Assembly (NCBI GenBank): GCA_030390025.1
Contig: CM059431.1
Span: 126,172,001-126,236,000, forward strand
Direction: 5' to 3'
Origin: Squalus acanthias
Taxonomy: Eukaryota
Length of the DNA stretch: 64,000 bases
Shown here: in pieces, positions 1,840 to 59,734 of the stretch
How the letters are laid out: each line of letters opens with the position of its first letter
Numbering within the stretch: the stretch's first letter is position 1
Program-made: the position numbers and the translations under genes
The notes under the pieces: generated by a model
What the model was told of the DNA's origin: nothing
Databases searched by the model: none
Seen by the model: only the letters and a program-made list of their open reading frames with translations

Positions 1840-2017
1840 CAAAAGCAAAATATTGCGGATACATAGATTAAAATCGGCCACATAGACCTACAACACAAAA
1901 GCAAAATACTGCAGATGCTGGAAATCTGAAATAAAAACAGAACATGCTGGAAATACTCAACAGGTCAGGCAGCATCTGTGGAGAGAGAAACAGAGTTAAT
2001 GTTTCAGATTGATGACC

Positions 2018-33725: not shown

Positions 33726-34064
33726 GTCCCCCCTGTGGAGACTTAAACTTGCTTGAAGTGTCCATACGAGGTGAACAAAATTTCTGACTGTCGCAAACAA
33801 CCTTCCCCTTTATTTACCTATCCTAATTCCCCCGACACGTACATTCCCCCACTTGGAGAATAACCGCAGTATACAGCAGGCATTTTAGATAGGAAACAAA
33901 TTCTTTTCCAGTAATCCCAGCACGGAGGGGGTCCAACATACCCCTGCACCACTTGGGATAAAACAGTTTTTTTTATTAAAAAAAAACAACAAACGGAGGG
34001 GACCATCTTTATTAAAAATAATAAAATTAGGCCGCCATCACTCGCAAGTGGTGCGACACGGAAT

Positions 34065-36413
34065 TCACGCGAGTGTCTCGTCTACCCGAGCATACTGGTC
34101 CCTCCAAACCCTTTGGGTTCTTGCTACTGCCTCGGGACCCCTTTTCCTACACTGGACGCAAACAAGGTAGGGGACGATCCTGAGCTGACAAATTACAAGC
34201 ACGTGTGATGCCAGACGAATCCAGGAGGGGACCTCGATATTCTCAAAGATGTCCCACCAGGGTCGGGTCGTAATATCCAGAATATCAGCCCCTATCTGGA
34301 TAGTCTTCTGTTCCAGTGTATAAAAATGCTTTTGCAACACCACTACGGCTCTTAATAGTTTAATGAGGTGTTCTGGGAGAGGGGGAATCTGGTAGCCGAA
34401 GTGAGCCACATACTTTTGGAGGTTGGTGAAATTCTCTCTTACAGTTAGGTGAACCGTGGATGGTTCAGGTATGGGGACAATTCGTTCCTGGGCCACTTGA
34501 ACTTCTGCCTTGGGTTTAAAGCAGAAGCTGCTGTCACTCACCGCACACCAGCTGTGCTGTCCATGCTGGTAGTGAGACGGTCCTGTGGTGATGCAATATG
34601 TCCCACCTCCTATATATGCTACCTGTGGGGGAACATGGCCTTGTGCCATGGCTTCCATGGTACAATTTATAGGTTTCGCGTCAGCAGCTCTGAACCCGCA
34701 TTGTGGTTTCGAATAGGCATGCAAGTGCTGGGGACACAGGATGATGTGTGCTCCCCGGCTACGGCATCCCGAGAGGTCAGTACCCGTCATAGCGTGATCC
34801 CACTTTATGACGTAGGGCGGGACCGCTGTAAAACGAACGTGTACACCCCCCTGAATGACACCAATGTTCTCCACCCTGTATACTGGCGTGGGTCGGGCCG
34901 TCCCGCCCATGACCGGCATCCTTACTATTATCCCCATGATAGTGTGGTTGGAACGTCCACAGTCCATTGGGACTGGGTAGGCCTCGGAAGCTAGTCAGAG
35001 CTGGCACGGGCTTAATGCGTTCTCAAAAGGGTGGAAGGCTGCGAGGTGCTTGTTGCTGATCCAGGAGGGGACCAAACCCTGTTTTAAGTCCTCCAGATTT
35101 CTGCGGCCCTCGCCCAGCAACCATGCCCCGTACAGTACGCACACCTCGTTTTGCGCAGCCTGGTCAGACGTATTCCGATCCTCCCTAATGAGCGCATTCA
35201 CCATCTTTGCATGTATCTCCAGCTCCGCTATGATCTCCTTTAGATGGAGAGTCATGGCCTGGTCTTCATGCAGTTTCGAACCCACTACCTTGTTCTCATC
35301 ATTTAAGACCTTCTTTAATTGGGTCTTCAGACCGTTGATCTGCGTCTGTAGTTCAATGTCGTCTAAACTATTAATAACTGAAGACCCCGCATTAAAACCC
35401 GTTAAAACATCATTAACAATACCCCTTCTCTGTCTCCCCACCCCGTCCCAAGCCTCGTGGCTATGTGTATACAATTTGGTCTTATCGATCTCCGCAAAAT
35501 CGAATTCGTAAAACTTTTGAAATGTTTTCCTTAAGAGGGCTTGATATAGTTTAGCGGTCTCTGCAGGGCACCACACGGGCAAGTGCACCTCAGTGAGATT
35601 TAAGATCACCGAGTCCATCGCGTAATGCACCCCTTGATAGAGCACCTGGTCTGTGGGTACCAGCACCAGGCCGTTCCCTGGTCCCTTGGTGGTGGCGGGG
35701 CATCCCTCTGCTACAGTCCGTGATGTCGGGGTCGTGGGCAGGGGCTGTCGGGGACGGGTCACTAATTCAGTGGCATTAACCGAGATTGGGGAGTATGGGA
35801 TCGCGCATGCATCCTGGCGCGACCCCCAGTCCATACCCCTCCCGTTATCCTGCCACTGGCTGTGGAAAATGATGGAAATGCCCGTGGGGCAGACTCTCTC
35901 TGAACCCCACATACAGACATAGATCCCCTGATCCGGTTCCCACCATTTGTCCCAGCACACACTTAACCCTCCCTGGGTCCCCGTGATGGTCCTGTGGGTG
36001 TCGTTCCCTAACCTTTCCCATTCTACCCTGGGGTTCCCCATGTCTTTGCTTAATTTTCTGAGCCACCACCACCTATCCAGGGGAATGTTGCCCTTACATG
36101 ATAAACAAATCCTTTTGCCCACGGTGACGCTGATCCTTGGGGTGACGATCCGTATCCTTGGGCACTGGAGGGAGGCCTCCCCATATGTAAAACCGGTCTG
36201 GCTCGAGTTCTGGGTCGAGTTTGACCCCAGCCATCCAGGCCAGCTCCCCTCGTGAGTATACGAGGCAATTTCATCCGCCTCGTGTAGGCCACTTCCATCG
36301 TGGGCTAGGGGTGCCGTCCTTCTGGAGCATCCAAAGATGCGGTGGTCCTCGGTGTCGCCCCTTCTCGCGAGGCTCAGCCCAGACAGGGCGAGCAAGATCA
36401 GGCCTCCGAACAT
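34065..36413 (-). pseudogene. env: env of provirus A, full length with one in-frame TGA at 34995-34997 (Arg in B)
   Basis: ORFs 34995..36413 and 34065..34967 share a frame and are colinear with Env B. TM and cytoplasmic tail are present. Confidence 0.92.
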
Positions 36414-36428
36414 TTCCCTTTTAATTGC

Positions 36429-36447
36429 CTGAAAAAAAAATAAAGAA
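36429..36447 (-). promoter_or_regulatory. Candidate env splice acceptor (provirus A)
   Basis: Minus strand reads ttctttatttttttttCAG|gcaattaaaagggaaATG. The equivalent in B is ...tgatcaCAG at 55215-55217. Confidence 0.65.
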
Positions 36448-36806
36448 CACCTAGCCAGGCTCCCTATAGGCTCCTTGGCTGGGGTGAAGTGTGAGCGGGT
36501 CCCTCGACCTCAGCTCACATGGACAAACACACATACACTGGAACGGTTCCATCTTAAAACTGCTATACGGTTCCGCACCTTAAAATCAAACTCAACAATC
36601 TAACTTAAAACTATAAACTTCTCAGACCAAGTTCTGTACATTCGCCGCCCGTCTCCGAGCGGCTAGCTTAAACTCTGTCAGGACTGCGGCAGGCTGCTCC
36701 CTGCAGCGTGGCTGTACGGACCCTTACTTCTGGTCCCTCACAGCCTGCGACTGTTGGCTGGGGACCTGTGTCTTTTAACTTAACTTTTGCTCGGGAGGTC
36801 ACCCCT

Positions 36807-37793
36807 TTAAACCGGCGACCATGCCTTCCTAGGTTGGGGTGTCCGAGGGGACCTCCTAGGAAGTGCTATAGGTGGGGCTACCCTGGCGAGCAGACCCTTG
36901 CCGTGGGTCGCAGTCCTCGCTGGCTGGGGGCTTTTCCCCCGTGGCTCCTCCCCTCCCAAGTCTGAGCTGGGGACAGGCAATCCCTCACTGCCTGCTGCTG
37001 TTGGCTGAGAGTCCTCGCCTCCAGGTTCAAAACCTGGGTCGGGGGCGGGGCTATCTGGTTCGGGCTCCTCCTCCTCCCCACCTGAGTCCCAGAAGAGAGG
37101 GGGGGTGGTTTGAACAGGGGCCTGGGTGACTCCTCCCTCAAGACAGGCCACTGCGCCTGCTTGTGCAGTCTGTGAACTGAGACCTGCTGGGAGCTGAGTA
37201 CTTCTAACCTTGGGGTGGTCCACCCTTGCTGGCTCCTCCCCTTTGTCGGGTTTAAACAGTTTGCACTGGTTAATGCTGCTAGCAGCCTGCCAGTGAACCT
37301 GTTTTAAAACCTTGTCCGCTGCCTCAAACGGACCTTCTATGGACTCTCCATTCTCTCTCTTTACCAGGACGGCCTTAAGGACGGGATCCTGGGCTTGGAC
37401 CTGCTTTAAGTCCGGGGCCAAGGCTACCCCCTGTGTGCCTCCCTTGTCCCAGATTGCGGCTACCGGACCTGCTTTGTAGGGATTCCAGAACTCTCCTTCC
37501 CTGGCCCCCTGCTTGGCTGACTTGTTGGCCTTTTGGTTACCCTCCCACGTGGTATGGAGGGATCCTAAATCTATGTCCAAAGGTTTGGACATTGCCCCAG
37601 CCTGCTTGTTCCCTGTGAATCCCATTAATCTGTACGGGACCCCGTTAGACCTGGGTGAATTGGTCAGGCCTTCCGAATGGACCACCGTGCTGGCAGCTCC
37701 GGTGTCCACCAAACATCTCCCCTGCAATTTCTCCACCCCCATCTTACCATCGTATCCCGGGGGACACAGGTGGACAGGCTGCGCTGGTTCTAG
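36807..37793 (-). pseudogene. pol: Internally deleted pol of provirus A (half PR + RNase H end + IN fragments + tail)
   Basis: LVDTGAAS...LHTTW is joined to EGNQKAN...GPF, then to LKQVHWQAA, then to NQCKLFKP. RT and the IN core are absent. Confidence 0.88.
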
Positions 37794-39718
37794 TCATAGG
37801 TCTGCGTTCTATGGGGCTGATGGGGTCAGAGCACCGGTGGTTGCTGCTATCTTCCCCTGACTGGCCAGGAGAACCCGCAGTGATTCTAGAACGCTCTCTA
37901 CTGTGGGGGTCCCAGTGTCTACCTTTGGGCCTGGAGCTGTGGAGCTCTTTCCCTTGGTGTCCTTCCAGGGGTTTTTGCAATCTTTGCGCCAGTGGCTGTC
38001 CTTCCCGCAGCCATAGCAGTTTAACTTATTCTGGGAGGGACGGTTTCCCTCCTGGTGCCACTCTTTCTTATTCTGGCCCCCAGGTTTAACCTCGTGGACT
38101 TTCCCTTTGGGCTGGGGCATCTCAATTCCCCTCCCGTTATTTCTAAATGCTACCGTGAGCTGGCGGATCACCATTTCTTCGGTGGTCTGGGGGTTTTGGG
38201 GGTCAAACCAGGCCACAGCCTGGGCTCGGATTTGGGGCAGGCAGTTCGTCATGAGACAACGGAGCCAGTGGGCCAATTGGTCTCTGTTGAGGAACATCCG
38301 CACTGGCGTTCCCGGGCACGCGCTCTGGTAGACTGGCCACAGCCTGTCTGCGAATGTCTGCGGGGACTCCACGGGGACCTGTACCGTTTTTTCCACTCGG
38401 GTGAACGGACTCCCATCATTTAGTCCCATGGCCTCCAATATCTCATCCCTTAACTCCTCGTAATCTTTCTGTCCCTTCTTACACTCATCCGATAGGGTTT
38501 GGAGGAGATCACTACCCAGAGAGAACAGCAGCATTTTTGCTTGTTCTGCCTCATCGCAGTCATTAACGCATGCTGCCTGCTCTATCTCCCAGAAATGTAG
38601 AGAGGGGTCCCCCCTCACTGTGAGCTTAGGGATGTGTCGAACCATGGCTCTGAGCTATTGGGTACCATGCGGCACTAAAAACTGGTTCTGGATTGCCCCT
38701 AGCTCCTCGCCATCGGCTGGCGGGCCATATCTCCGTTGTCGGAGGGGGTACACTGGTCCCGGACCCGGTTTATCCCCTAGGGCCTGCTGGATCTCCCATA
38801 ATGCTCCATCCTCCACCCCCCCTTGCTGCCAGGCCTCTTGAAAACTCGGGGCTCTGGGTGGCGGTCGTAAAACCTCTGATTCCCTAACCAGTGCCTTTCT
38901 GGGAGCTGCCTGTGGGACTTCCCTGCTTGGGTTGCTGGTAAAATCCAACTGGCCCATCTTCGGGCTGATGAGGCATACCATGCCCTTCGCCCTTACTAAG
39001 GCCATGCCCAAGCTTTCTATTTCTTGCCTGCAGGGGCCGTGGTCTGTGTCTTCAAACCCCTGGGCACAAGCCAGCTTATATGCTGCTTTTACTTCGCCTA
39101 CTTTCTCCTCCTGCTCTTTCAACTCTTGCGTGAGGCTGGAAATCTTGTCCATTAACCTAACCTCACTACCTCTCGCCTCTCTGACCTGGTATTCCAGGTG
39201 TTCCATCCTGTGCCTAGCGCTACTTTTGAGCTCTGCGATCCGGTCTTCCAGGCGCTCTGACTTTGCCTGGTGTTCCCTTTGAGCTTCAACGGCCCGGGCC
39301 CTCATACGCTCTAACTCAGCCTGATGGTCCCGTGCCGTCTGCACCCTCTCTTGGCTTACTGCCTGGAGGGCCACTACTACTTTCTCCTCCGCTGCAGTCT
39401 TTTCCTGCAGCTCTCGGGTCAACTGTTTGATCTTGGCTGCCCGTGTTGCAACAGCACGGTCTAACACTAAAACCTGCTTTTTCAAACACATGAGCCAGAC
39501 CGCTTTTTCAATACCTCTCCTGTACTCTTTACTTGCTGTCCACTGGGCAGCTGCATCTAGGGGGCGCTCGGCTTTTAACATATCGCACACCCTTTTTTTG
39601 CGATATTAACTTTGCCGCACACATAGGTAGATAACCTCCACTCCATTGCGGATTCCTCCTCCGCAACACGGTCTGCCTTATCACACGCTTTCGCATGGGC
39701 TTCTACCTGGCTCGCCAT
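37794..39718 (-). pseudogene. gag: gag of provirus A (1-nt deletion at ~39592; premature TAGs at 38655 and 37809)
   Basis: ORFs 38655..39590 and 37809..38645 align with Gag B (EKAVWLMC, HGMVCLISP-like, DPSxHFxEIEQ, CYGCG..HWRKxC). Confidence 0.9.
39707..39717 (-). promoter_or_regulatory. Primer-binding site, tRNA-Arg(ACG)-type (11-nt match)
   Basis: TGGCGAGCCAG is complementary to ...CUGGCUCGCCA of tRNA-Arg(ACG) as recalled. The match breaks after 11 nt. Confidence 0.7.
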
Positions 39719-39721
39719 TTC

Positions 39722-40700
39722 TGTAAGGGGTTTTTGTCTCGGGCTTATTTGTAGGTCAGCCAGTTATGTTTTCCTGAGCTGTTCTGCCCGCTGTGCGGTT
39801 GCGAATCGCTATCCCCTTCCTAGTTCTGAGCCCAGGACTTATCGAGCGGCGATAAGGACAAACGAACAGACCCGTGGATTGGTGCGAGGAAAACCAATGT
39901 TTATTTACAGAAGTAAAACTACAGAGAAACAGTATCATATGAAGAAAACAAAATCACTATGCAGTACGGTTTTACACTTAACATGGGAAGAGAACGGACA
40001 CATCGAGGGAAAATCCTAAAATTACAATTTTAGCAATATCTCCATTAATTCCCACCCTTATGCCTAACTAAAATTGTCTTGCGACAGCCAGAAGAAGATA
40101 ATGCTCACCGGTGAAATGGATGGAAAAACCTGGCCCTGGACCCTGTTTCTGTCGTCGAAACGTGGCTACAAAGTTTCTGGTCTTCTTTCTTGGCTGCTGG
40201 CAGACAGGTAGGGTGAACCGGGATCCAGGCAGAGAGAGAGAGAGAGAGGGGCTGGATCTTCCCAGTTATACCCTCGCGGTCGTCCTAATCTCCCTTCAGA
40301 TCAGCTCATTTCTATTGTCTGATCTGGGCATGATGAATTTTAACAAAAGGTACTGATCTTGGCCCATCATGTTAGATGGCCGGTAATTGTATCATACCAG
40401 TTCTTCAACTGTTCCCCTTTGTCCGACAGGTTCGATGATTGTCCAGCAGTCTCAATGTCCTCGCTGATTATTTGAGCAAACACCTTGAAAGCCTTATGCG
40501 TAGACCTAATTGGGTTTGTCCCCATTGCATCGGAATACACAAGCTGATAGTTTGCCAGCGTCTGAAAAGCTCTTGGTCACAAGGTCTGACCGCAGCCATT
40601 TTATGCCCTGGATTTTAAAACTCAGTCAGACCAGGGTTCCTTTTAATAAGTCCAACAAAAATCTTCGGGGGGGACACATGAAATTTTGCGAATCCTTTCA
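39722..40700 (-). repeat. 5' LTR of provirus A (979 bp)
   Basis: Minus strand reads TGAAAGG...CCCCTTACA, followed by GAAA and the PBS. Confidence 0.95.
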
Positions 40701-43700
40701 GCACACACTTCTTACTTTCTCCCCTCCCTTGACCACAACCCAACACTTGTCGGTTTTAATTTCATGTACCCAAGAACTGGACCCTTCCCAGTCAGAGGAG
40801 GAAGAAGAAGAAGACAGTGAAAATGAAGAGACACCATCACTCGACCATACACTCGCAGCCGCCAGCTCAGAGAATGATACTCTACGTATTTTAGAGCCTA
40901 GAATAGAAGAGGGATCTGCAAATGGTGAGACACCGAGCACAAGTGTGCATGGGCCTTGGTGAGGGGAAACGATAGCGCAGGTGTCAGCTCATCGGAGGGC
41001 AAGGTCACACACTATTTCTGCTGCAGAGGACCCAGCTGACGACTTTGATGGGCCAGGCTACAGAAAAAGGCTGATTGGTGCACACACCCCAATGCTTGGT
41101 GCATTGGAAAACCTACCAGAAAGCCTGCGCTCAATGTCAAGGAGCATGGAGGAGTCCAGCACCAACTTGGCACAGGGTGTTGCACAGAGCTTGGAGCCCA
41201 TCCTTTCAAACATGGACGGGTGATCATCTCCATCAGCACACTTGTGGAACCTACCATTATGCAGTGTTTGATGACCAATGTCGCAGCTTCCATTGCAGCA
41301 CAAATAGCTTCCATCAAAGGTCTGAGTGCTGCATTGGCATCTCAGACTGCTGCCTTGCAAGCTCAGACTGCTGCCATCATGATTCTGGATACCACTGTTC
41401 AAAAGAGCTTCCAGGGCATCACAGCAGTCCATCAATCTGTTCTCCCACAGATCAGCAGGATTGCTGAGGTGCCGCCCCAGTAGAATGGCAGTGGGCTCCA
41501 ACCTCTGTGCAACACCTTGTGCCAAGTTGGTGCTGGACTCCTCCATGCTCCTTGACATTGAGTGCAGGCTTTCTGGTAGGTTTTCCAATGCACCAACCTG
41601 CTGCCCTCTCTCAGGATGACAGCATTCCTGCTCCCACCCCTACAACTCTGCCAGTGCACTTGCTGTTGCCTGTCAGCCAGCCAGCCCAGACTGCTGCAGC
41701 CCAGGCAAGATCTAGGACCAGAGCTGCTCGAGGTCACCCTCCAAGGCCATCTGCAGTCTCCTCACTTGAAAGTCAGCATCCTTCCACCACCCATGCTTGC
41801 AACCACTGGGGAAGCATCTCATAGGTGTACTGGGAAAGGTAAAGGCACATGGAAGGCAGGCACTGAGGGGATGTACAAGGCTGCTTAGTTTCATTTTTTA
41901 TGCATTATTTAATGAATGAATTTATAAAATTGAATTAGAATTAGCATTTTCTGGTGGTTTTATTTTTGTGTTGTTGGAAAGAGGATGAGGTGATTGTCAG
42001 TGCTGGAGGAAAGGTAAGGATTGTGGGACTGTTGGTGAATGGGGAGGTGCAGTTGAGATTACTGGTATCGCTCATGAATAATCTGATCACGTAAAGCTTG
42101 GGCAGAAAGGGGCTGTTTACATTGCAGCTACCCTTCCTCTTCCGCTTCCTTGACTTCCTCTGGCATTCCCTCCTCCTACTCCTCCACTTCCTCCTCCTCT
42201 GCTTCATGCTCCTGCACCTCAGTTTCTGGCTTGATAGATTGTGACAAGCGCTCTTCCCTCATAATGGCCAGGTTGTGCAGCATGCAGCATGCAGCATAGT
42301 ACTACAAATCTTGATACACGCTCAGCTGTGTGGTGCTCGGCTCCTCCAGAATGGTCCAGGCAGCGGAATCATTGTTTTTGGACACCAATGGTGTGCTCTA
42401 TAATGTTCTTCATGGCAGCATGGCTCTCAATGTAGGCCTGCTGTGCACGTATGCGTGGGTTCTGGACCGGAGCCATGAGCCATGTCATGATGGGATAACC
42501 CTTGTCACCAAGTATCCAGCCTTTGACTTGCCATGTGGTTTAAATACAGGTGGAATTAAGGACTGCCGCAGAATGAATCGTGACTGTTGGCAGGATAACG
42601 GGCATTCTGTATGATGCACTGCCTTGTGGTTGCACACCAGCTGCACATTGAAGGAGTGGAATCTCTTTTGGTGTTTTTGTATTGTGTTGTTAGAAAGAGG
42701 ACAATCAATTTTTTGGTTGATGTAAATGGCCGAGTTCAGATGAGGAGCACACAAGGCAATGTGTGTGCAGTCATGGCACCCTGCACCATGGGGAAGCCTG
42801 CAATCCATGCAAACCCTAGTGCTCGCTGTTCCTGCTAGTCTCTGGCAAGAAGGAATGAGATGAATGTATTTCTTTTGGTATAGAATTCTCAGTGACCTCC
42901 CTTATAAAGCAGTGTACTGAAAACTGTTAGATGTTGCTTTTATCTCCAGCAGCAACCTGAAAGAAGTCAGATGCATAAAAGTTCAGAGCCACAGTCACCT
43001 TGACAGCCACGGTCACCTTGACAGCCACAGGCAATGCAGTCCTTGCCCTGCTTTGAGGCTGCAGTTGTGACTGCAACACTTGACAGATTTCACTCACGAC
43101 CTCTTTAGTGAAGCAAAGACATCTCATGCATTGATTGGCGCTGAAGTTGAGGTAAGAGAATTGCTCCCTGAAGTCACTCAATGGATATGGCCTCCTGCTG
43201 AGAGCTGTTCTCCTCCTCCTTCTCCTCCCAACATGTACAATTGCACCAGCAGCCAGGAGAAATAATCCAACAACTAACCAGTAAGTGCTTCATGATCCCG
43301 TTAAATAGCGCTGGTCGGGGGCCTTTCATTCAGTTTAACGTTGTGTTCAGCTGTGCGAGGTTAAGACAGGACACAGGCTGGAGTGTGGAGTTGGAAAATG
43401 GTATTGATGGCTTCAAATTAGCGTAGCACACTGATTCGCATTATCATCTTGCTGCTATGCATGCTGCCGGTGGATGGTAGGCGCGCCAATGCCTTTACTA
43501 AGGAGACGTCCTGCACACTTCCCGCTGGAAAGGTGCGTGAGCCTGTTAGACCCCATTTCTGAGTCTTATTTGGCTGCATTGCACCTAAAAAACAGGTGCT
43601 ACACCCAATTTAACCCCCATTGGGAGTAAACTTCCATAAGAAGCAGGTGACCAGACCACTTAAGTAAACAACTGACATTCCTGAATCCGAGTAGCTATCT

Positions 43701-46884: not shown

Positions 46885-48594
46885 TGTAGAATTCGCAATA
46901 TATCGCGATTTTATAAATAAGGAGAGAACACATAGTTTCGTTCAAACAGCTTTTATTTCAGCAGAATGCTGTCAGGTTTCAAAGTGGACACAAGCAGCTT
47001 GTAAAATGGCCGCCGCACCTCGTGGCGGAACATTCTAGACTTTTCGACAGGCAGACAAGATGGCGTTCCAATAAACATTTGTGCAAGATCGATTAAGACT
47101 CAGCACATTGAAGATAATACACGAGACATCATGGGTTTACAGTATACACATAAATACTGAAATCGGTCTCCCAGGTACGAATGAAAGCTATTGTACCAAG
47201 TAATCAAGAGCCCATCCAAAGACATTAATATGTAAAATCCCAACGACTCTACGATGAGAGAGCCGTTAGCGGGTAGTTACAGAAAACACTTGGAAGCCCC
47301 AAAACCCCTCCAGGGAGAACACCGACCGATTAAACAATGGGAGAAATATTAACAGGTACTCAGACATTTACGAGTAGCCCCGAAACCCATTAAAAACGGA
47401 GATCACCCTATACAAGACATTTGAGCGCCAAACCCTAACAAAAGAAAAGACATTAAGGTTGGGCGGGAAACGGAAGATTTTGTACTATAATTACAAGCTC
47501 CAAACCGTCCATCGCTCTCTTATCCTCTTATCTTGCTGGTGTTCATCCTCGTGGCTGCTCCTGTGCTCTTGACTCGCCGTCTTGTTCCTGCTTGCCTCGT
47601 GTCTCTTTTAAAAGACTGTTGAACTTTGTGATCCGCTCGGATCTACCTCGTGTCGTGTCGCGAAGACCTGTGTAGAACTGGGCTCTGAAGCCTTGAAGCG
47701 GGCGCACCATTCCGATAAGTCGGTAAACGGTGTCGGAACCGAAGGCCCGAGACGAGATGAGATGAGATGAGATGAGATGAGAAGAGAAGAAGACCATACT
47801 TATCGCCACGGTCAGTAAGCCCCGACCGCGCCTGTAGGTCGAATAGACATTTTCCCTGCCAGGAAGACTTCTTTGAGTTCTACAGAACTGACACAGGAAG
47901 ACTCTTCTTTGAATTTTATCGCACCCGTGCGAGGGCACAGGAAGACTCTTTTTTGAGTAGAGTCGGAACTCCGAGGACAACACAGATCTTCATGACAGCA
48001 GACGTTCCAGCCTGCTAGCCGGAGCAGAAACGAGTAAACAAGTGGGGCCAGGAGACCCCCTGATCGACACGTGGGTGCTGCGGTGAAAAACATCCGAGCA
48101 GAGTTTTCGGAATTCTCCGAGTTATCACGAGTGGTGAGCATGAGTCTCGAATCCTACGAATCTAGTTTAGAATAGGTATTGATAGGGGAGGGTTTAAGTT
48201 TTAAGGATAATTGTAATGTGCGCCCCCATTTACGATGTGTCGTTCGTTCCTCGTTTCCCTGAAATTAATTACATAACTGCGTGCAAGATTGTACTGTCAT
48301 TAATCTGTGCTTATGACATGTATTTCGTAATCTTAAGTATTATGCAATAAAGATTTTCCATTTCGTACCATTCAACCGAGTCTACCTGAGTTTCATCTCC
48401 ATTACTGCTCTCGCATCTAAGTCCAGTGTCTAGAACCGTAAGGGCGAGTGGGTCGAACCACTCACAGGTGTGTCTAGTGCTCCCAGACTGGCTGGAGACC
48501 AGAACAGGCAATAAGGCCTAAACCCGCACTAGCATCCAGGCTGCACAGAGCCACACGAATCTCACAGGCTGAGAGACGGTCAGAAACCCTTACA
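46885..48594 (+). repeat. 5' LTR of provirus B (1710 bp)
   Basis: TG...CA termini. GC box at 47461, TATA-like TATAAT at 47486, AATAAA at 48346, internal (GAGAT)n. Confidence 0.96.
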
Positions 48595-48598
48595 GAAA

Positions 48599-50404
48599 AT
48601 GGCGACCGCGGCAGGACACTGGCAGCGAGAGGGTAGTGTGTTAGACTTTGGTGTGAATGTACAAAATGTTATGCAGGAAAAGATAGCAGATTATGTGTTC
48701 GGAAAGGTAAATTTAACTAAGAAATGGATAAGTGACCTGTTAGCGGATAAGAGTCCACTAGAGGCAGCCGAGAGGTGGACAGATAGTAAGGAACATAAAA
48801 AGACAGTCGAGAAAGCAGTCTGGTTAATGTGTTACAAAAGGCAGGTCCAGATTTCAAACCAAGTCATTACAGCACAAACAGCTCGGATCAGGCATTTAGA
48901 GGAGGAAATGGATGAGAAGGTCTCTGGAGGGGAGTTGCTCATTAGGAATTTAAGTGTGCTGCACCAAGAACGCCAGGAAATCACCAGTCACCATAAAACA
49001 AGGATAGATTACCTCGAGTGCCAGGTCACTGAGGCAAAGTTAAGTGAGGGCAGACTAAAGGAACGATGTGCCCGCCAAGCTGCCCAGATAAGAACCCAGG
49101 AAGAGAGCTTAATGGGGGTTAGGGCAGCATATAAGTTGGCCCTTGAGGATAAGTTTCAGGGGGCCGATCATAGCGCCTGCCAACAGGAGATAGAGCACCT
49201 TAAAAGGGCCGTGAACAAAGCGCACGGCATGGTGTGCCTTATCAGTCCGTCAGCACACCAGCCGCTAGTAAATGAGGAATTTCAGAAATCCCCACCAAGT
49301 AAAGCAAAGGAAGTATTGGCCACTGCGCCCTCCGCGCCACCCAGCTATTCGGAAACCTGGGTAAGGGAGGAAGTAGTGGAAGAAACGAAAGAGCCCACTG
49401 AGGGAGAAGTGGAAAAGGGACCGTTGTATCCGGTAACGGGTATAAAAAGGGGCCCAAACAGAAACGGGGAGGAAGAAGGGGTTCTCCTCAACCAGCTTGT
49501 GTTGCCTCACAGCTCACACCAGCTGAGAGTTATGATAAATCACGTACGGAAGCTGACCGAGTCAGACGACCCTTCCGTACATTTCAGAGAAATTGAGCAA
49601 ACCGCAGCCATCAACGGCTGCGATGATGGGGAAACAGCAAAAATGCTGTTATTTTCGTTAGGCAGTTCAATCCTTCAGTGTCTCTCGGACGAGAGCAAGA
49701 GGGGAACCAAGACTTATGAGGCATTGAAAAATGAGGTCCTAGAAGTGTTGGGGGCGGACGATGAAGGTCCGTTTGCTAGAGTGGGACAGACAGTGCAGAT
49801 GGAGGGAGAACCCCCGAAGGTTTTTGCCGACAGGCTGTGGCCAGTATATCAGCGCAGCTGTCCAGGTGCGCCAGAGCGCGACGCTGTGGACGGCGCCGGT
49901 TTAAATCATTGGCTCAGGTGTATAGTAGCCAACAGTTTGCCAGCCGTCAGAGAACAGGCAAAGGCGTGGTTTGATCCCAATGACCCCAACATTACGGAAG
50001 AGTCGGTCTTGAATCGACTCACGATAGGATATCGCAATATCAGGGGTATGGGAACACGTCCCCTTAAGGGAAAAGTACATGAGGTACGACCCGCAGCCCC
50101 GGCTCAAAGGGAGTGGCATCAGGAGGGTAACCGCGCCCCGCAGGCAAGTAATGCTTGTTACGGGTGTGGGAGGACAGGGCACTGGCGCAAGAACTGCAGG
50201 AACCCTTGGAAGGATTCCAGGGATAAAAATCCCGCAGCCCGAGCCCAGATGCCTGTCTCTGTTAGGGAAGCTAGTGCACCCACCCCTCCCGACGACCTCG
50301 AATCAGTGTTGGGAGCCATGCGCAACTTCATGAGTGCGCATGGAAAAGTGGCGGTTGCTACCGGCCCCGTAGGTGCCGCAGGACCGTCTAACCAGACCCA
50401 ATGA
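48599..50404 (+). CDS. gag: Gag, 601 aa: N-terminal coiled coil, capsid-like region, single CCHC knuckle
   Basis: Intact ORF right after the LTR. Zinc knuckle CYGCGRTGHWRKNC (Cx2Cx4Hx4C). Confidence 0.92.
   Translation: MATAAGHWQREGSVLDFGVNVQNVMQEKIADYVFGKVNLTKKWISDLLADKSPLEAAERWTDSKEHKKTVEKAVWLMCYKRQVQISNQVITAQTARIRHLEEEMDEKVSGGELLIRNLSVLHQERQEITSHHKTRIDYLECQVTEAKLSEGRLKERCARQAAQIRTQEESLMGVRAAYKLALEDKFQGADHSACQQEIEHLKRAVNKAHGMVCLISPSAHQPLVNEEFQKSPPSKAKEVLATAPSAPPSYSETWVREEVVEETKEPTEGEVEKGPLYPVTGIKRGPNRNGEEEGVLLNQLVLPHSSHQLRVMINHVRKLTESDDPSVHFREIEQTAAINGCDDGETAKMLLFSLGSSILQCLSDESKRGTKTYEALKNEVLEVLGADDEGPFARVGQTVQMEGEPPKVFADRLWPVYQRSCPGAPERDAVDGAGLNHWLRCIVANSLPAVREQAKAWFDPNDPNITEESVLNRLTIGYRNIRGMGTRPLKGKVHEVRPAAPAQREWHQEGNRAPQASNACYGCGRTGHWRKNCRNPWKDSRDKNPAARAQMPVSVREASAPTPPDDLESVLGAMRNFMSAHGKVAVATGPVGAAGPSNQTQ
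48600..48617 (+). promoter_or_regulatory. Primer-binding site, tRNA-Arg(UCG)-type
   Basis: TGGCGACCGCGGCAGGAC, 5 nt after the LTR. It is complementary to the 3' end ...GUCCUGCCGCGGUCGCCA of vertebrate tRNA-Arg(TCG) as I recall that sequence. Confidence 0.85.
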
Positions 50405-53400
50405 CTAGAGCCCGCGCAGCTCGTCTACCTGTGTCCGCTCAGCTATGATGCGTGGAAGCGACCCCTGGTGGAAATGGAGGTAGAGAAACAGAAGGGTAGT
50501 TATTTGTTAGACACGGGAGCTTCTTGCGCCGTGATTCATACAGATAGCCCTTTTGACTCACCGCTATCTACCAAGGTCCCATTCACATTAGCGGGATTCA
50601 CGGGAAAAGAACAGGCTGGCGCGTTCTCCTTTCCGCTATCCATTCGTTTGGGGGCACTTCACATCAAGTGGAAGTGCATATTGATGGAATGGCAGGAGGG
50701 GGGTGGAAGAGGTATCCTCGGGTCCGATCTTCTATCAGGACACGGGATCCTCGTGGACCTCAGAAATCATTGTCTCTGGGGGGCTAAGAGTGAAAAAGGC
50801 GAGGTCGTGGTAATTCCGGGGGAGGAAGAAACAGGGGTCCTGTGTACCATGCAGCCATCCGGAGGCTACGACCTCGGGCTCATGGTCGCAGATGTCCCAA
50901 CGGACATGCAAACGTACGTGTCAGATAATATGCACGCGTTTGCAACCCACAAGCACGATTGTGGGAGGGTTACCGGGTTGGAGGTCAGCGTAGATGGGGA
51001 CCCCATGACCCGGCCCCAAAAACAGTATAACTTCCCCAAAGAAGCAGAACCCGATATGGAGACAGCAATGTCCTCCTTGGTGCAGCAGGGCGTGTTGAGG
51101 CCAATAGCCACACACGTGAACTCCCCATTATGGCCGGTTAGGAAGCCGGATAATTCGTGGAGGGCCACGGTGGACTACAGAGTCCTTAACAGTAACATTC
51201 CCGCCTGCGCGCCCACGGTAGCAGCAGTTGCTGACCTAATAGGGAGTATCCCAGCGTCTGCGACCACGTTCACGGTGCTGGATATCTCGAACGGTTTTTG
51301 GTCCATCCCGCTGCGGCGAGAGGACCAGTACAAGTTTGCCTTTACTTTCAAAGGACAACAGTACACATGGAACTGTCTGCCACAGGGTTTCCACAATAGC
51401 CCCAGTATTTTCCATCAGTGTATGGCAGGAAGTTTAAAGGAGTTTAGTCAGCCCAATCAGATAGTGCAGTACGTGGATGATTTGCTCCTATTTACGGATT
51501 CAAGGGAGGAGCATGGACCACTGCTGGCCGAGTTATTGGAGCTGTTAGCGAGAAAGGGTTTTAAAGTAAACCCTAAGAAAGCACGTATCGGTCAGCAGGA
51601 AGTAAAATTCCTGGGGCTGACCATTCGCGCTGGGGAAAGAGCCATAGATAAGGCTAGGAGGGAGTCGGTGCAAGAGTTACCAATTCCTAACAACATAAGG
51701 GGTGTGAGGTCCTTCTTGGAACTGACCGGTTACTGCAGGGATTTTATCGAAGACTATGCGGCCACAGCGGCGCCGCTCCTCCGACTCCTCCATAAGGGAG
51801 TGGAGTGGTCTTGGGACGAGGGCTGCCAAGCAGCCTTCGAGAAGTTAAAAAGGGATCTGCAGACCGCGCCAGCCTTAGGGGCCATAGATGGGGGGAAGGA
51901 GTTTTTCCTGGAGGTAGCTGCCAGCGGGGACAGCTTGAGCGCTGTGCTGCTCCAAGAGCGTCACGGCAAGCTGAGGCCGGTTGTCTATTCGTCCAGGGTG
52001 TTAACGGATGTGGAGAGAAGTTTCTCCAATTGCGAAAGGCACCTTTTAGCCACGCATTGGGCTGTGAAAAGATCAGCGATCTTCACAGGGCTCTCTCCCA
52101 TCACTCTCCTCACCCACCACACACCAACTAAGATGCTTCTAGATGGGAGGATTAAAGATGGGACCGTAAGCAGCGTGCGTTTTGCGCGCTGGACCATTCT
52201 TCTTTCCCAGATGGATCTTAGAGTAAAAGGTCTTTGCGAGCCCAGGCTTGCGGCCAATTTGGTATACCCCGGTACAGCCCACCGATGTTCGGCGGAAGGG
52301 GTGTGGGACGTCAACATAGGTTTGCGGGCCGGGATACATCCCACTGGGCGCGAGATTTATGTTGATGGTTCTAGCACAGTATCTGCTGGCGAACGACTCA
52401 CAGACTGTGTAGTTTATGACCCTGCGGCAAACCTTGCCCTGGCGATCAAGCTCCCTAGCACCATGAGCGCGCAGCAGGCTGAGCTGTCTGCTGTGGTGTA
52501 TGTTGTTACCCACCCAGACATCTTCCCAACCCTATACACGATTTGCTCGGACAGTATGTTCACATGTAATTCGTGTACGGAATACCTGGCCATTTGGTCC
52601 CGCCGTGGATACACCTCCGCGGACGGGCGACCTTTAACGGTGAAGCCCTTGCTGGAAAAGATCCTAGCAGCAGTAGGGGATGAAGGGGAGATTTTCATCC
52701 ATAAGGTGAAAGCTCACTCCTCCACAGAGCCCCGTGGGGAGGGCAACCAGCAGGCAGATGCGCTAGCCAGGGAAGGTGCCCGCAACGGCATTTTCTGGGA
52801 CCCCTATGGGACCAGACCCATGGCAGCGATCCAAGGCAGGGACGGGAATCCCGGGAACCCCAGGGTAGCATTGCCCCTAGACCTTAAGACCGTCGAAACC
52901 CAGGATCCCGCCCTAAAAGCAGTCCTAAAAACCATTGCTGAAGGGAAGCAAGTAGAGGGTCCGTACAGTACGGCAACCCTCTCAGTTAAGGAAGGCATGC
53001 TGTTCCGCGAGGGGCAGTGGGTTGTGCCGCAGCAGCACAGGAGGGAATTCCTCCAGTTGGCTCACGAGGGACCAGGGGCAGGGCACCCCGGGCCCGAGGT
53101 TACCTGGCAACGGGTAGAGCAAGCGGGATGGTGGCCAGGGCTCAGGGAACAGGTCCGCGAGTTCTGTGCAAACTGTCTTGTGTGCGCTGCAAACAACCCA
53201 GACCCCCAGAAAAGGAAAGTGCCCATGGGGCACGTAAGAAGGGTAGAGGGACCATGGCAGTCGATACAGATCGACTATATAGGGCACCTGCCTACCACCC
53301 AGGGAGGCTATAAATACTGCCTCGTCTTGGTGGATGTGTTTTCCAAATGGGTGGAAGCCTTCCCCTGTCGAACAGCTACGGCACTGGGTACTGCAAAAAT

Positions 53401-54931
53401 CTTGGTCCGGGAAGTGTTCTCGCGGTGGGGACTCCCCCGTTTTGTGGAGTCAGACCAAGGGAGTCATTTCACCGGACAGGTGATGCAGAACACCCTCATG
53501 CTTTTGGGCATTGAAGGGAAGTGGCACGTAGCACACAATCCCCAGTCATCCGGGATTGTTGAACGCATGAACCGGACCCTGAAGGAGAAATTGAGGAAAG
53601 AGACTAGGAACTCGCCCCAAAAATGGGCGGAAGTTCTGCCTTTAGTCCTCATGGGGGTCCGGGCCAGTCAGTCAAAAAGTACGGGGTACTCCCCGCACGA
53701 GGTGATGACTGGGAGGCTCATGCGAACCCCCACCCATGTGCTAGCGCCGGTGCTCACTGAGGGTCAGCTCCAAGAGATAAGCAGGGACAAGTTCGCCCAG
53801 ACCATCTTGGAGCGCCTGAAGCAGGTTTATGAGCAGGCGGCTGGGAACATGGGAAGGCAGCATCAGGGCAATCGCCTGTTGCTGGAACCCCGCAAAACGC
53901 GGGAGTGGGAAGTAGGAGACCAGGTTATGGTCAGAAACTACGCTAGAGTAGGGAGTCTGGAACCACTGTATATGGGACCCTACAACATTGTAGATTAGGC
54001 GAGTCCCATGATATACGCCGTAAAGGTACCTCGGCGCACTAAGTGGTTCCATGTAAACCAGTGCAAACTGTACAAGCCAGGTGCGCAAGGGAAAACCACA
54101 GGGGTAAACCCTGTGAGTGGGGACGCGCAGCCCCAGGTAGGACCACAAGGCACACAGGCAGGCAAAGCAGCTTGCATCAGGGGAGGAGACATCCTGGAAA
54201 ATTGTGAAACATTTTTGTGGGGTTGGGAGTCAGATGAGGGAGAGTTCTTGGAACTCGAGTCAGATGAGGATAGTGATGAGGACGAGTGGGGATCGGGGAA
54301 CGCAAGGGTCGCCCCCGATTCAGGTATAGGGAGGACAGGGGCTGCAGATAGAGATCCACACAGGGTGGACACCGAGGCTGCAGGTCCCGAACACAGGAGG
54401 GAGGAGTTAGGGGAGGCGGAGCCAGCCGCTGTGAGACCACAGGGAGTGACGGTGAGAACCTCAGAGCCCGAGCCGCCCACCTTGAACGTCCTGCCCTCGG
54501 GGGAGGTAGGGATTGCGAGTGAAGGGCCGCCTGCTGGGCCGAGCAGGGCAGTGCCACAAGCTGCAAGTCCCGAGGTCAGGGAGGCGGAGTCAGGGGAGGC
54601 GGAGCCAGTGACTGTGGTGGGACCACAGGTCGTCCCGGCGAGAGTCTCGAACCCCGGTCCGTCGGTCCTGGGATTCCTGCCCCCGACAACTCCTCGTAGG
54701 TCAAGTAGAGAACCCCAGCCCAGGAAGATGTGGGTATGGCCCCAGACGGTCCCAAGGCGTAGACTCAAGGTTAAGGCAGCCCAGATAGAACCCGGTCCCA
54801 TCGCAGCAGCAACAGGCTGCGGCAGATCAGAGGAAGGGGTCAGTGCAGCAACAGGCTGCGGCAGATCAGAGGAAGGGGTCAGAGCCCTCCCACCGTCGGG
54901 AAGAGCTCGCAGCAGCCTTCTCAAAATTTAA
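50405..54931 (+). CDS. pol: Pol (PR-RT-tether-RNase H-IN-long tail), in frame with gag, with one internal TAG at 53996-53998
   Basis: PR: LLDTGAS. RT: LDISNGFW, LPQGFHNSP, YVDD. Tether: FLEVAASG...CERHLLA. RNase H: YVDGSS, QQAEL, SDS, KVKAH, GNQQADALA. IN: HEGPGAGH...CLVC, IDYIG, SDQGSHF, GIVERMN, GPY. ORFs 50468..53998 and 54008..54931 share one frame. Confidence 0.93.
54806..54883 (+). repeat. 2 x 39-bp in-frame tandem repeat in the Pol tail (AATGCGRSEEGVS/R)
   Basis: Direct duplication of gcagcaacaggctgcggcagatcagaggaaggggtcag. Confidence 0.9.
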
Positions 54932-55230
54932 AGGGAGCCGCCCTGAGAACGGGCGGCGCTGTACAGGAATAAGTTTAGGATAGGTTTCTAAGTTTATAGT
55001 TTAAGGTTAAGAATAAGTTTATAGTTTTAAATCAGGTTAAGTTTGTAGTTTAATTTTAACAGAAAATGGTAAAATGATGGGAGTTAGAGATAGGTTTAGT
55101 TAAAGTTTATTTAGTGAACATTGAAGTTTACGTGAGGCGAGGTCTGGGGACCCGCTCACCCTTCACAAAAGCCAGAGTCTCTTGCGAGGCTGGCTACCTC
55201 ATTCTATCTGATCACAGGAACCAAGGAAGG

Positions 55231-57581
55231 ATGGAACGAATTCTAGTATTGCTTGCGGCAATCGGATGTGGATTGGCCTATCGAGGCCGCACCAAGGATG
55301 TCGTGGTGTTTGGATGCTCCGGGGACACGGCCCCCATCGCGGTGGATGGGACCGGAAGACGGGAGGCTGAGGAGACCACCACCTATTTCCACAAGGGAAG
55401 GTGGCCAGGATGGCTGGGAACGAACTCAACGGAGTATTCCAGCACATCGGGGTTTGCCTACCAAGAGACTTCTTTAATGTGCCCCAAAGTAAGGATCATC
55501 GCACCCAGGATCAGCGTCACCGTCGGCAAACGGATTTGTTTGACTTGTAGTGGGAATGTCCCATTGAGCCGATGGTGGTGGCTGCGAAAGCTGAGCAAAA
55601 ACATGAGGAACTCTTCGGTCGAGTGGGAACGACTGGGTAATAATACCCATCGGACAATTACGGGGACAAACGGACAAGTGAGAGTCTGTTGGGACAAATG
55701 GTGGGAACCGGATGAGGGAATTTATGTATGTATGTGGGGGTCAAAGTACGTTTGCCCCAAAGGCATCTCCATATTTTTCATTAATCAATGGCAGGATAAT
55801 GGACAGGGGATGAGGTGGGATGCGAGCACCAGGGGGTGCGGAGCCCCATTCTCCCCGATCCCAGTAAATGCCACTGAACTCATTACGCGCCCACGCAAAG
55901 CCCCGCCCACGATTCCGGTGGTTCTAGCTAAGGAAGAAGGGTGCCCTAAAACCAGTAAGGGACCCGGGAATGGTTTGGTACTGGTCCCCACAGACCAGAT
56001 ACTATTTCAGGGGGTCCACTACGCGGTGGCCTCGGTGATTTTAAATCTCACCGAGGTGCGGTTACCAGAGTGGTGCCCCAAAAAGACGGAACAGTTGTAT
56101 CAGGTCCTGTTGACCAAGATGTTCAGACAATTTTACGAATTCGATTTCGCGGAAATTGATAAAACAAGTTTGTACACCGCACCACATGAAGTTTTGGATC
56201 AAGTAGGGAGGCAAAGAAGGGGTGTAGTGAACGACGCGTTCACTGCTTTTAACACGGGTACATCTGTGGTCAACGCTCTAGACAGTGTGGAGCTGCAGAC
56301 CCAGATTAATGGTCTAAAGACGCAATTAAAAGACATTCTAACAGATGAGAATAAAGTGGTAGGGTCGGGTTTACACGAGGACCAAGCCATGACTCTCCAT
56401 TTAAAGGAAATTATAGCAGAGTTGGAGAAACATGCAAAGACGGTAAATGCCCTGATTAGGGAAGATCGGAATGCATCCGATCAAGCTGCGCAGAACGAGG
56501 TGTGCGTGCTTTACGGGGCGTGGTTACTGGGCGAGGGCCGCAGTAATTTGGAGGATTTAAAACAAGGTTTGGTCCCGTCCTGGATAAGTAACAAACACCT
56601 GCGGGCGCTCCACCCTTTTCAGAACGCATTAAGTCCGTGCCAGCTCAGGCTAGCTTCAGAAGCATACCCAGTCCCCGTGGACTGCGGACAATCAAACCAT
56701 ACTATCATGGGTATAGTTTTACATATGCTGGTTTTGGGCGACACAGCAAAGCCCGCCCCGGTGTATCGGGTAGAGAACATTGGTGTCATTCAGGGGGGAG
56801 CCCACATTCGCTATGCAGCGGTTCCACCCTACGTCATCCGCTGGGAGCAAACGATGACAGGTACAGATCTCTCTGGTTGTCGTGGCAGGGGAGCACACAT
56901 AATACTGTGTCCCCAGCACTTGAATGCCTTTTCAACACCACAGTGCGGGTTCAGAACGGCTGGCTCCAAGTCCATGAATTGCACCATGGAGGCAATGGCA
57001 CAAGATCATGTGCCTCCGCAGGTAGCATACATCGGGGGTGGAACATATTGTGTTACCACTGCAGCGCAACACTACCAGCATGGAAACCGTAGCCGGTGTC
57101 CGGTGAGTGACAGCAGTTTCTGTTTCAAACCCAGGGCGGAAGTTCAAGTAGCACAACAGCGAATTGTCCCAATCCCTGAACCATCCACTGTTCATCTAAC
57201 AGTAAAAGAGAATTTCACCGACTTGCAGCGATTCGTTGCACATTTCGGATACCTCATTCCCCCTCTCCCTGAACACCTCACCAAGCTTTTAAAAGCCGTC
57301 GCGGTGTCACAAAAACATTTTTACACACTAGAGCAGAAAACTGTCGAAATAGGAACAGACATTCTGGATATAGTAATTCCACCGTGGTGGAATCTGTTCA
57401 CCAATATTGAAGGCCTTCATGGATCAGGATAGCCTCCCACATTTTAGTCGTATGCCAAGTTTTTATTGTAGTGTACCTATTGGTCGTACATTGTAAAAGA
57501 GACAAACGCCTCACCAAGCATGAAAACACGGGAGAGTGGCGAGAACGTTACGTGCGCGTGCACGATGAAAGCACCGTGTGA
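55231..57581 (+). CDS. env: Env: F-like class I fusion glycoprotein with N-terminal Ig-like domain; 1-nt frameshift at ~57412 before the TM anchor
   Basis: Signal peptide MERILVLLAAIGCGLA, furin site RQRR|GVVNDAF, heptad region, Cys-rich DLSGC...ILCP...QCG. The TM and tail (PSWIRIASHILVVCQVFIVVYLLVVHCKRD...STV*) continue in another frame at 57414-57581. Confidence 0.88.
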
Positions 57582-58020
57582 TCGGAAAATGGCGTCGCTC
57601 CCGCTCGCCACGTGCGCCGCGGAAGTTTGTACTCGATCATGCTTTTCAAAGACTGTAAATACGTTTGGAACTCGACATGTTTTAAGAGTTGGTGTTGATT
57701 ATTTTGGTGATGGTGTTGTAGTTAAAAATGATTGTTTGGTTTTGGTTTTGTTTTTCCTTTCCCTAAATAAAAAGATGAATGTACAGGTGACACGAGAGGC
57801 ATCGGCCTGGTTACGCCGGGAAGGAAAACAAGTGGTGTAAGTTTAAAGGCAAATAATGCCTACGGTGATATAAAATGTAATTTTCTTGGGAAATAAGGAC
57901 GACGCAAAGACCCTAGATCGTTTAAGTTATGGGATTAAATTTTCTGGATTTGGAGAAAATCGAGATAATATTGCTCACCACAATATTTTTGATACGATAA
58001 GCGGAGTTATTCGCATCAAC

Positions 58021-58029
58021 AGGAGGGAC
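58021..58029 (+). promoter_or_regulatory. Short polypurine tract of provirus B
   Basis: AGGAGGGAC abuts the 3' LTR. Provirus A has AGGGGGGAC in the same position. Confidence 0.7.
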
Positions 58030-59734
58030 TGTAGAATTCGCAATATATCGCGATTTTATAAATAAGGAGAGAACACATAGTTTCGTTCAAACAGCTTTTA
58101 TTTCAGCAGAATGCTGTCAGGTTTCAAAGTGGACACAGGCAGCTTGTAAAATGGCCGCCGCACCTCGTGGCGGAACATTCTAGACTTTTCGACAGGCAGA
58201 CAAGATGGCGTTCCAATAAACATTTGTGCAAGATCGATTAAGACTCAGCACATTGAAGATAATACACGAGACATCATGGGTTTACAGTATACACATAAAT
58301 ACTGAAATCGGTCTCCCAGGTACGAATGAAAGCTATTGTACCAAGTAATCAAGAGCCCATCCAAAGACATTAATATGTAAAATCCCAACGACTCTACGAT
58401 GAGAGAGCCGTTAGCGGGTAGTTACAGAAAACACTTGGAAGCCCCAAAACCCCTCCAGGGAGAACACCGACCGATTAAACAATGGGAGAAATATTAACAG
58501 GTACTCAGACATTTACGAGTAGCCCCGAAACCCATTAAAAACGGAGATCACCCTATACAAGACATTTGAGCGCCAAACCCTAACAAAAGAAAAGACATTA
58601 AGGTTGGGCGGGAAACGGAAGATTTTGTACTATAATTACAAGCTCCAAACCGTCCATCGCTCTCTTATCCTCTTATCTTGCTGGTGTTCATCCTCGTGGC
58701 TGCTCCTGTGCTCTTGACTCGCCGTCTTGTTCCTGCTTGCCTCGTGTCTCTTTTAAAAGACTGTTGAACTTTGTGATCCGCTCGGATCTACCTCGTGTCG
58801 TGTCGCGAAGACCTGTGTAGAACTGGGCTCTGAAGCCTTGAAGCGGGCGCACCATTCCGATAAGTCGGTAAACGGTGTCGGAACCGAAGGCCCGAGACGA
58901 GATGAGATGAGATGAGATGAGATGAGAAGAAGACCATACTTATCGCCACGGTCAGTAAGCCCCGACCGCGCCTGTAGGTCGAATAGACATTTTCCCTGCC
59001 AGGAAGACTTCTTTGAGTTCTACAGAACTGACACAGGAAGACTCTTCTTCGAATTTTATCGCACCCGTGCGAGGGCACAGGAAGACTCTTTTTTGAGTAG
59101 AGTCGGAACTCCGAGGACAACACAGATCTTCATGACAGCAGACGTTCCAGCCTGCTAGCCGGAGCAGAAACGAGTAAACAAGTGGGGCCAGGAGACCCCC
59201 TGATCGACACGTGGGTGCTGCGGTGAAAAACATCCGATCAGAGTTTTCGGAATTCTCCGAGTTATCACGAGTGGTGAGCATGAGTCTCGAATCCTACGAA
59301 TCTAGTTTAGAATAGGTATTGATAGGGGAGGGTTTAAGTTTTAAGGATAATTGTAATGTGCGCCCCCATTTACGATGTGTCGTTCGTTCCTCGTTTCCCT
59401 GAAATTAATTACATAACTGCGTGCAAGATTGTACTGTCATTAATCTGTGCTTATGACATGTATTTCGTAATCTTAAGTATTATGCAATAAAGATTTTCCA
59501 TTTCGTACCATTCAACCGAGTCTACCTGAGTTTCATCTCCATTACTGCTCTCGCATCTAAGTCCAGTGTCTAGAACCGTAAGGGCGAGTGGGTCGAACCA
59601 CTCACAGGTGTGTCTAGTGCTCCCAGACTGGCTGGAGACCAGAACAGGCAATAAGGCCTAAACCCACACTAGCATCCAGGCTGCACAGAGCCACACGAAT
59701 CTCACAGGCTGAGAGACGGTCAGAAACCCTTACA
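58030..59734 (+). repeat. 3' LTR of provirus B (1705 bp)
   Basis: Copy of the 5' LTR. By eye it differs by about 4 substitutions and one 5-bp unit at the microsatellite. Confidence 0.96.

Follow-up and report, generated by a model that had tools for sequence, protein, structure and literature searches.

F-type Env has been published for three groups, the lokiretroviruses (PMC7947760), the foamy viruses (PMC11468914) and the errantiviruses (bioRxiv 10.1101/2023.10.26.564294), according to the available text of these sources, and the fold described below is therefore not new. More retroviral F-type cases are expected by Viro3D (PMC12583693, available part), and the available part of PMC7947760 leaves the origin of retroviral env open, giving four scenarios and excluding none. 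As for cartilaginous fishes, endogenous retroviruses (ERVs) resembling the snakehead retrovirus (SnRV) have been reported in a chondrichthyan, namely elephant-shark CmiERV lineage I (PMC6001957, PMC4422223 and PMC12193657, available text).

Here we analyze an env region in a 64,000-nucleotide stretch of Squalus acanthias DNA (the window; all positions are counted from its first letter). An earlier note on this DNA had placed at 55960-57410 a fusion module resembling the F proteins of paramyxo-, pneumo- and baculoviruses rather than a retroviral transmembrane subunit (TM). Our main reading, to which we assign a probability of roughly 80%, is that the region is the fusion core of an F-type ("class Ib", PMC11468914) Env, carried by a very young, multi-copy ERV of cartilaginous fish that belongs to a basal, canonical retroviral branch of snakehead-retrovirus grade and is neither Loki nor foamy. 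In the literature searched, where subscription journals were thinly covered and a prior account is possible, we found no F-type Env on SnRV-like or epsilon-like retroviruses.

The provirus, its lesions and its relatives

The env gene with the fusion region under study is part of an LTR-flanked provirus spanning 46885-59734 on the + strand, on which all features described below lie unless stated otherwise. The 5′ LTR (46885-48594, 1710 bp, TG...CA) has a 4-bp target-site duplication ahead of it, the same 4 bp being found at both outer flanks, and the 3′ LTR (58030-59734, 1705 bp) is preceded by a short purine tract; the two are 99.5% alike (1701 identities, 4 mismatches and 5 gap positions). 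A primer-binding site (PBS) usually begins about 2 nt behind the LTR. The PBS-like site here, read directly from the sequence, lies 5 nt past the LTR (48600-48617) and shares bases with the initial ATG of the gag frame (48599). The gag gene (48599-50404) encodes a long predicted coiled-coil region, a capsid-like part and one CCHC knuckle (zf-CCHC E 0.0057, under the Pfam cut-off). Its coiled-coil-like stretch, at about 48750-49300, precedes the capsid part and is present in the second window copy too; an SMC-like gene is found in some lokiretroviruses. Gag terminates at a TAG in the same frame as pol, from which we infer readthrough of the TAG. The pol gene (50405-53998) contains protease, reverse transcriptase (RT, with YVDD), tether, RNase H and integrase (Pfam RVT_1 8e-36, RT_RNaseH_2 1e-21, RNase_H 5e-19, rve 3e-15), and thus, by Pfam, a dual RNase H of tether plus RH. 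The remainder of the pol frame (53999-54931), which has no Pfam match, comprises the end of the integrase and a low-complexity acidic and Pro-rich tail of about 280 aa with an Arg/Ser/Pro-rich motif near its end; a similar motif was seen by eye in the second window copy and in the snakehead-retrovirus Pol, P0077.

This copy is defective, its env anchor being lost by a frame break and its integrase carrying a stop. In the integrase, the C-terminal domain is interrupted by a premature stop at 53996; of 10 homologous Pols, 7 continue in alignment past this point. Twenty of the 24 sequencing runs listed (10 studies, 6 organisms) contain 45-77% of the sampled words, and in each of the four examined (X3, X9, X14 and X19), every one of the 30 bins is covered, with numerous variant contigs. 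None of the depth over the integrase stop agrees with this copy in any of these four runs, so that the stop looks private to it. At the env break, the share of depth in contigs that differ from this copy is about 11% for X3 and 81-90% for X9, X19 and X14, contig depth not being copy number; the break is common to other copies, so an assembly error is unlikely. In run X3 it is seemingly common to many copies. Env lacking its anchor might be released by secretion; alternatively, the sub-lineage may do without a functional env as it spreads. No splice into env was found among the joints listed for two runs guessed to be RNA, both of which cover env, a result that is neutral on expression.

At about 32750-40701, the minus strand carries a second, related provirus with LTR-like repeats 96.8% alike, a gag split by a stop and most of pol deleted. 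Its env shows 75% protein identity to the first and has one in-frame stop, near 34997, with the anchor in frame. Over 720 codons, the comparison of the two env copies gave pN 0.15, pS 0.68 and omega of about 0.10, with dS near saturation, and the best conserved part is the fusion peptide with HR1 (85%). Judged from the sequences, the env ectodomain is evidently under purifying selection. Within 60 kb there are at least four related insertions; also seen in the window (2016-3707 and 27734-29324) were a solo LTR of the same family, at 90% identity and with a 4-bp duplication of its own, and a related, older LTR at 65-75%. Skate (76%) and sawshark (67%) supply the nearest named Env relatives; those from houndshark, bamboo shark, catshark and frogs are more distant. 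The gene models P0003, P0008 and P0020 fuse env pieces to other sequence, in one case Niban-1-like (sawshark), and are probably annotation chimeras.

Anatomy and predicted fold of Env

The env frame starts with a signal-peptide-like hydrophobic stretch (55231-55284) in which 19-residue hydrophobicity reaches its main-frame maximum (KD 1.22). The fusion region proper begins, after an extra head, near 55936 with an F2-like pre-cleavage part (55936-56208, 91 aa), which has the two long strands and the helix of the F fold (pLDDT 77-91 over model residues 1-70) and aligns to F proteins from model residue 9 on; the previously proposed start, 55960, thus falls 8 codons inside it. It is followed by a furin-type site, RQRR (56209-56220), and a 20-residue candidate fusion peptide (56221-56280), which together (56209-56280) were placed by homology to F and have a model pLDDT below 50. 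The next segments are the HR1/HRA helices with a predicted three-fold coiled-coil core (56281-56565), the beta- and Cys-rich region corresponding to F domains I-III (56566-57264), with Cys motifs at 56863, 56902, 56941, 56977 and 57046, and the HR2/HRB helix with a Trp-rich membrane-proximal segment (57265-57410; second heptad 57265-57369, Trp motif 57379-57390). The transmembrane anchor and a short tail (57411-57581, best 19-mer KD 2.55) are in a different frame in this copy owing to a break in env near 57410, and 57430-57432 is the stop codon of the main frame. Basic cleavage site, fusion peptide, HRA, HRB and TM therefore occur in the order typical of F, the TM being out of frame here.

All the motifs on which the earlier note had built its case were found in a single + strand frame, the TM apart. 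They include a long heptad region after the peptide, a second heptad and a Trp-rich segment. Two details need correction: the beta/Cys insert exists with its Cys motifs but measures 233 aa, not about 250, and the anchor said to close the module exists but lies in another frame beyond 57410, where the module had been taken to end. The peptide after RQRR had been described as atypical and partly polar, which agrees with its mild hydrophobicity (KD 0.70) and amphipathic character (helical moment 0.36, p=0.010, 2000 shuffles). Thirteen motif-anchored segments were taken from both window copies and from 10 relatives out of 14, and 8 of the 13 were amphipathic at p<0.05; the other four relatives yielded no segment, and one segment probably represents a wrong site. 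Heptad periodicity in the three helical segments gave p=0.024, 0.017 and 0.012 (3000 shuffles), values that are optimistic because the segments were picked after the model was seen. Past the cleavage site, there are 10 Cys and 386 aa up to the Trp motif, a long subunit laid out like that of F, as had been suggested. The TM ectodomain of orthoretroviruses is much shorter than that.

We predicted the structure of the natural frame 55939-57408 with AlphaFold (AF2, no templates) from an alignment of 28 rows, taken from 41 relatives at E<=0.001. The model has a pLDDT of 70.2 and a pTM of 0.51, low confidence being confined to the cleavage loop, the peptide and the vicinity of the C-terminus. Foldseek found 246 matches in the PDB at E<=0.001, the best being hPIV3 F (E 8.1e-11), and all 38 matches listed were paramyxo- or pneumovirus F. 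With VIA-align as a second look, hPIV3 F (1ZTM) scored Z 13.3 (rmsd 8.5, 340 aligned). When VIA was run widely, over 48,161 chains, F proteins and foamy Env filled the first 16 rows (Z 12.0-6.0), with NDV F (Z 12.0, rmsd 18.1, 341 aligned) and foamy Env (Z 8.3-8.4; 8RM0 with Z 8.4, rmsd 5.2, 274 aligned) among them; the first unrelated row had Z 5.0. The matched span covers at least model residues 9-416, on both sides of the cleavage site and with the beta domains included, at modest whole-chain TM-scores (0.25-0.45), large rmsd and 7-17% identity to F. Among the predicted viral structures of BFVD, there were 53 matches at E<=0.001, with baculovirus F (E 1.2e-11 to 9e-9), lispivirus glycoproteins and the Envs of walleye epidermal hyperplasia virus (4e-8) and walleye dermal sarcoma virus (2.5e-5). 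BFVD also matches a fish filovirus (Wenling thamnaconus) glycoprotein and an abalone herpesvirus protein, which together with the walleye Envs occupy ranks 2, 8, 23 and 37.

The Foldseek, VIA and BFVD matches of the predicted model thus support the proposed resemblance to paramyxo-, pneumo- and baculovirus F. Best matches to gp41/TM or to non-fusion proteins had been named in advance as the outcome that would speak against it; the top matches were F or foamy Env, and orthoretroviral TM was absent among the matches listed (38 from Foldseek against the PDB and 50 + 50 VIA rows). The contrast "F rather than retroviral TM" nevertheless overstates the difference, because the Envs of foamy viruses and lokiretroviruses also belong to the F type (PMC11468914 and PMC7947760, available text). 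Searches at the sequence level found little: Pfam listed no fusion family for env or for the 28 family members (25 of 27 families listed, E<=0.5), Fusion_gly and Baculo_F being absent among the families listed for those members, and phmmer of env against the PDB returned one chance match only and no fusion protein. The family profile reached foamy Env in the PDB at a sub-significant E of 0.049, with the Cys pattern of the beta region aligned, and the whole Env gave one chordate cluster in the ESM Atlas at 0.77, a lead only.

The F likeness could in principle be a modeling artefact or a convergence of coiled coil and beta structure in what would be an orthoretroviral SU/TM or a non-fusogen. The low identity, the shallow alignment and a peptide that is polar for a fusion peptide would fit this, but a match obtained without templates extends across the beta domains, its Z of 12.0 stands against 5.0 for unrelated chains, and the post-cleavage ectodomain exceeds the length of an orthoretroviral TM ectodomain; we consider the explanation extremely unlikely. 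The model supports instead an F-type fusion module with a nested F core formed from the pre- and post-cleavage parts. In it, the F2-like strands are integral to the fusion fold, unlike in the orthoretroviral SU/TM (class Ia) layout, where fusion is left to a short TM subunit. In a three-copy prediction of residues 1-333, the score was 0.59 against 0.00 for the best control, which may reflect memory of solved F trimers; among solved homo-pairs, 21 of 30 attain the mark used, and among single chains, 0 of 23. The HR1 helix is central in the predicted trimer, with a contact agreement between runs of at least 24% and a pLDDT of at least 50.

The extra N-terminal head (55285-55935) occupies about 217 aa between the signal peptide and the F2-like start and is a putative attachment module. 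A segment of about 90 residues within it (about 55480-55745) looks Ig-like: Pfam Ig_3 matches the head with E 0.0078, and that of the second window copy with 0.0025, both under the cut-off; against the PDB, the best E is 0.06 and most weak matches listed are antibody or Ig chains; and in the ESM Atlas, the head retrieves rows at 0.87-0.90, mostly of Ig families. The model of the head, made from 4 sequences, is unreliable (pLDDT 36), its best Z of 6.5 falling within background among assorted beta-sandwiches. These matches point weakly to a putative Ig-like domain. Of the distant relatives, P0031 has a weak V-set match (E 0.045), and P0010 is annotated as Ig-like by its source. In P0009, P0010, P0018, P0021 and P0031, the F module is kept and the N-terminal heads differ, and different heads on the same module suggest head swapping between lineages. 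The available text of PMC11468914 presents F as a minimal scaffold accepting binding modules at the N-terminus or between subunits, and the head found here fits that proposal of modules taken up at varied positions.

Placement of the element among retroviruses

In an RT tree of 44 rows, the RT joined canonical retroviruses in a group that left out the Loki-type P0048 (100/98), and a tree of 23 rows gave the same placement (100/99); both contained a single Loki-type reference (P0048, identified by motif) and zero foamy RTs. The AU test rejected a clade with P0048 (p=0.0275) and a wider group (p=0.0246), while a clade with SnRV was neither recovered nor rejected (p=0.087), leaving a polytomy among canonical retroviruses. 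RT identity amounts to 52-53% with the Pols of frogs and coelacanth, 43% with P0077, which was matched by eye to the snakehead retrovirus, and 34% with P0048. Gypsy RTs, at 23-32% identity, were separated at 100/99-100, which sets the element apart from Ty3/gypsy (Metaviridae, errantivirus). The nearest Pols are annotated as NYNRIN-like, and lokiretroviruses have an integrase close to CGIN1/NYNRIN. A scan of IMG/VR with Pol gave no match.

A lokiretrovirus was our first guess for the element and was dropped after the comparison of RT motifs and the trees. Under that explanation, it would be the first lokiretrovirus in cartilaginous fishes, with an N-terminal head added to its Env, and its RT would fall in the Loki clade, the sister of canonical retroviruses. 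The hallmarks are there in the Env, which resembles F of the Mononegavirales, the tether plus RNase H and the RXKR-like site, but the RT has LPQG where P0048 and the consensus RTs of Loki have a CPFG-type motif, and the AU result speaks against a common clade. Although the tether and integrase are 40% and 41% identical to those of P0048 and the integrase groups with it (100/99, 8 rows, in a tree without canonical references), the head is absent from all 10 Loki Env consensus sequences examined (of 23), and in eight of these 10 the fusion peptide opens with F-x-G. By eye, a likeness to Loki is visible in the Cys spacing and in the GP motif where F2 begins; against this, 0 of 6 chondrichthyan genomes were positive for Loki in the published screen, in the available text of PMC7947760. 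We regard this explanation as unlikely and, on sequence grounds, the element is probably not a lokiretrovirus.

Foamy Env is the only above-noise viral match of the family profile in the PDB and is also among the VIA matches, which would suit a divergent fish foamy or foamy-like virus whose F fold is that of foamy Env; paramyxovirus F, however, outscores foamy Env. The RT-RNase H region scores 198-215 bits against Pol entries that we take to be foamy and 231 against the MLV type. Foamy viruses have a Gag without a Cys-His box and express Pol separately, unlike this element with its Gag CCHC knuckle and in-frame gag-TAG-pol, and the signal peptide here is short where foamy viruses have a long leader. 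Foamy ERVs of cartilaginous fish do exist, as the available source text has it, but the RBD of about 330 aa between the subunits (217-543 in the available text of PMC11468914) is missing here, the F2-like part of 91 aa running straight into RQRR. We therefore find a foamy origin very unlikely and retain the placement on a basal branch of canonical retroviruses.

Proposed working, origin and comparison with known systems

In the ancestral virus, the signal peptide would have brought Env into the ER, Env would have trimerized as predicted, and furin would have cleaved it at the RQRR motif. The Ig-like head, to judge tentatively from its position, may have bound the cell, standing in for the separate attachment protein of paramyxoviruses. 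After triggering, by analogy with F and foamy Env, HR1 would extend and the amphipathic peptide insert, and HR2 would then fold back into a six-helix bundle, joining the membranes. According to the model, the F2-like pre-cleavage part would remain a structural piece of the fusion machine, unlike orthoretroviral SU.

Our reading extends F-type Env to a basal lineage of canonical retroviruses and would make it a third retroviral lineage with the F fold, one whose RT, at the split from Loki, goes with the canonical retroviruses and whose gag-pol is orthoretrovirus-like. It fits the idea that the ancestral retroviral Env was F-type. We put forward tentatively, and at somewhat less than even odds, that the F type is the ancestral form and survives in lokiretroviruses, foamy viruses, the present shark and frog lineage and, going by predicted models, walleye epsilonretroviruses; that SU/TM of the gp120/gp41 type would be a later replacement within Orthoretrovirinae; and that the Ig-like head would then have been added here as a receptor-binding module. 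If true, neither the preferred scenario, in which env acquisitions were independent (PMC9040795), nor the filing of all orthoretroviral Env as class Ia (PMC11468914, available text) would stand. With the model matches to the walleye viruses, the question of env origin becomes testable by structure-based phylogeny.

Among described systems, the SnRV clade, or clade Huo, shares with the element an RT 43% identical to SnRV Pol with common motifs and, in the available text, a provirus of about 11-13 kb; it differs in that a sister relation was not recovered, and the available parts of its sources (PMC6001957, PMC4422223 and PMC12193657) are silent on an F fold. With baculovirus F and errantivirus Env (bioRxiv 10.1101/2023.10.26.564294, available text), it has in common the matches to baculovirus F models and the occurrence of F-type Env on LTR retroelements, but errantiviruses are invertebrate Ty3/gypsy elements and the RT here is retroviral. 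Paramyxo- and pneumovirus F (hPIV3 1ZTM, NDV 3MAW and RSV 3RKI) give the best matches among solved structures, over F2, HRA, domains I-III and HRB; paramyxoviruses have a separate attachment protein, whereas the retroviral Env described here, at 7-17% identity, has an N-terminal head of its own. Lokiretroviruses, as the available text of PMC7947760 describes them, share the F-type Env on an LTR-gag-pol-env element, the tether plus RNase H, and the succession of signal peptide, R-X-K/R-R site, fusion peptide, coiled coil and TM. They differ in that the RT here lies outside the Loki-type branch, in the head of about 217 aa, and in the fusion peptide, which is amphipathic and contains Asn/Asp here and has an apolar F-x-G start there. 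Foamy Env (8RM0/8RM1; PMC11468914, available text) likewise carries a class Ib F core on a retrovirus, with the Cys pattern of the beta region and a Z of 8.4, but has an inserted RBD and a long leader, whereas the putative binding module here is N-terminal and the gag-pol layout, unlike that of foamy viruses, resembles that of orthoretroviruses.
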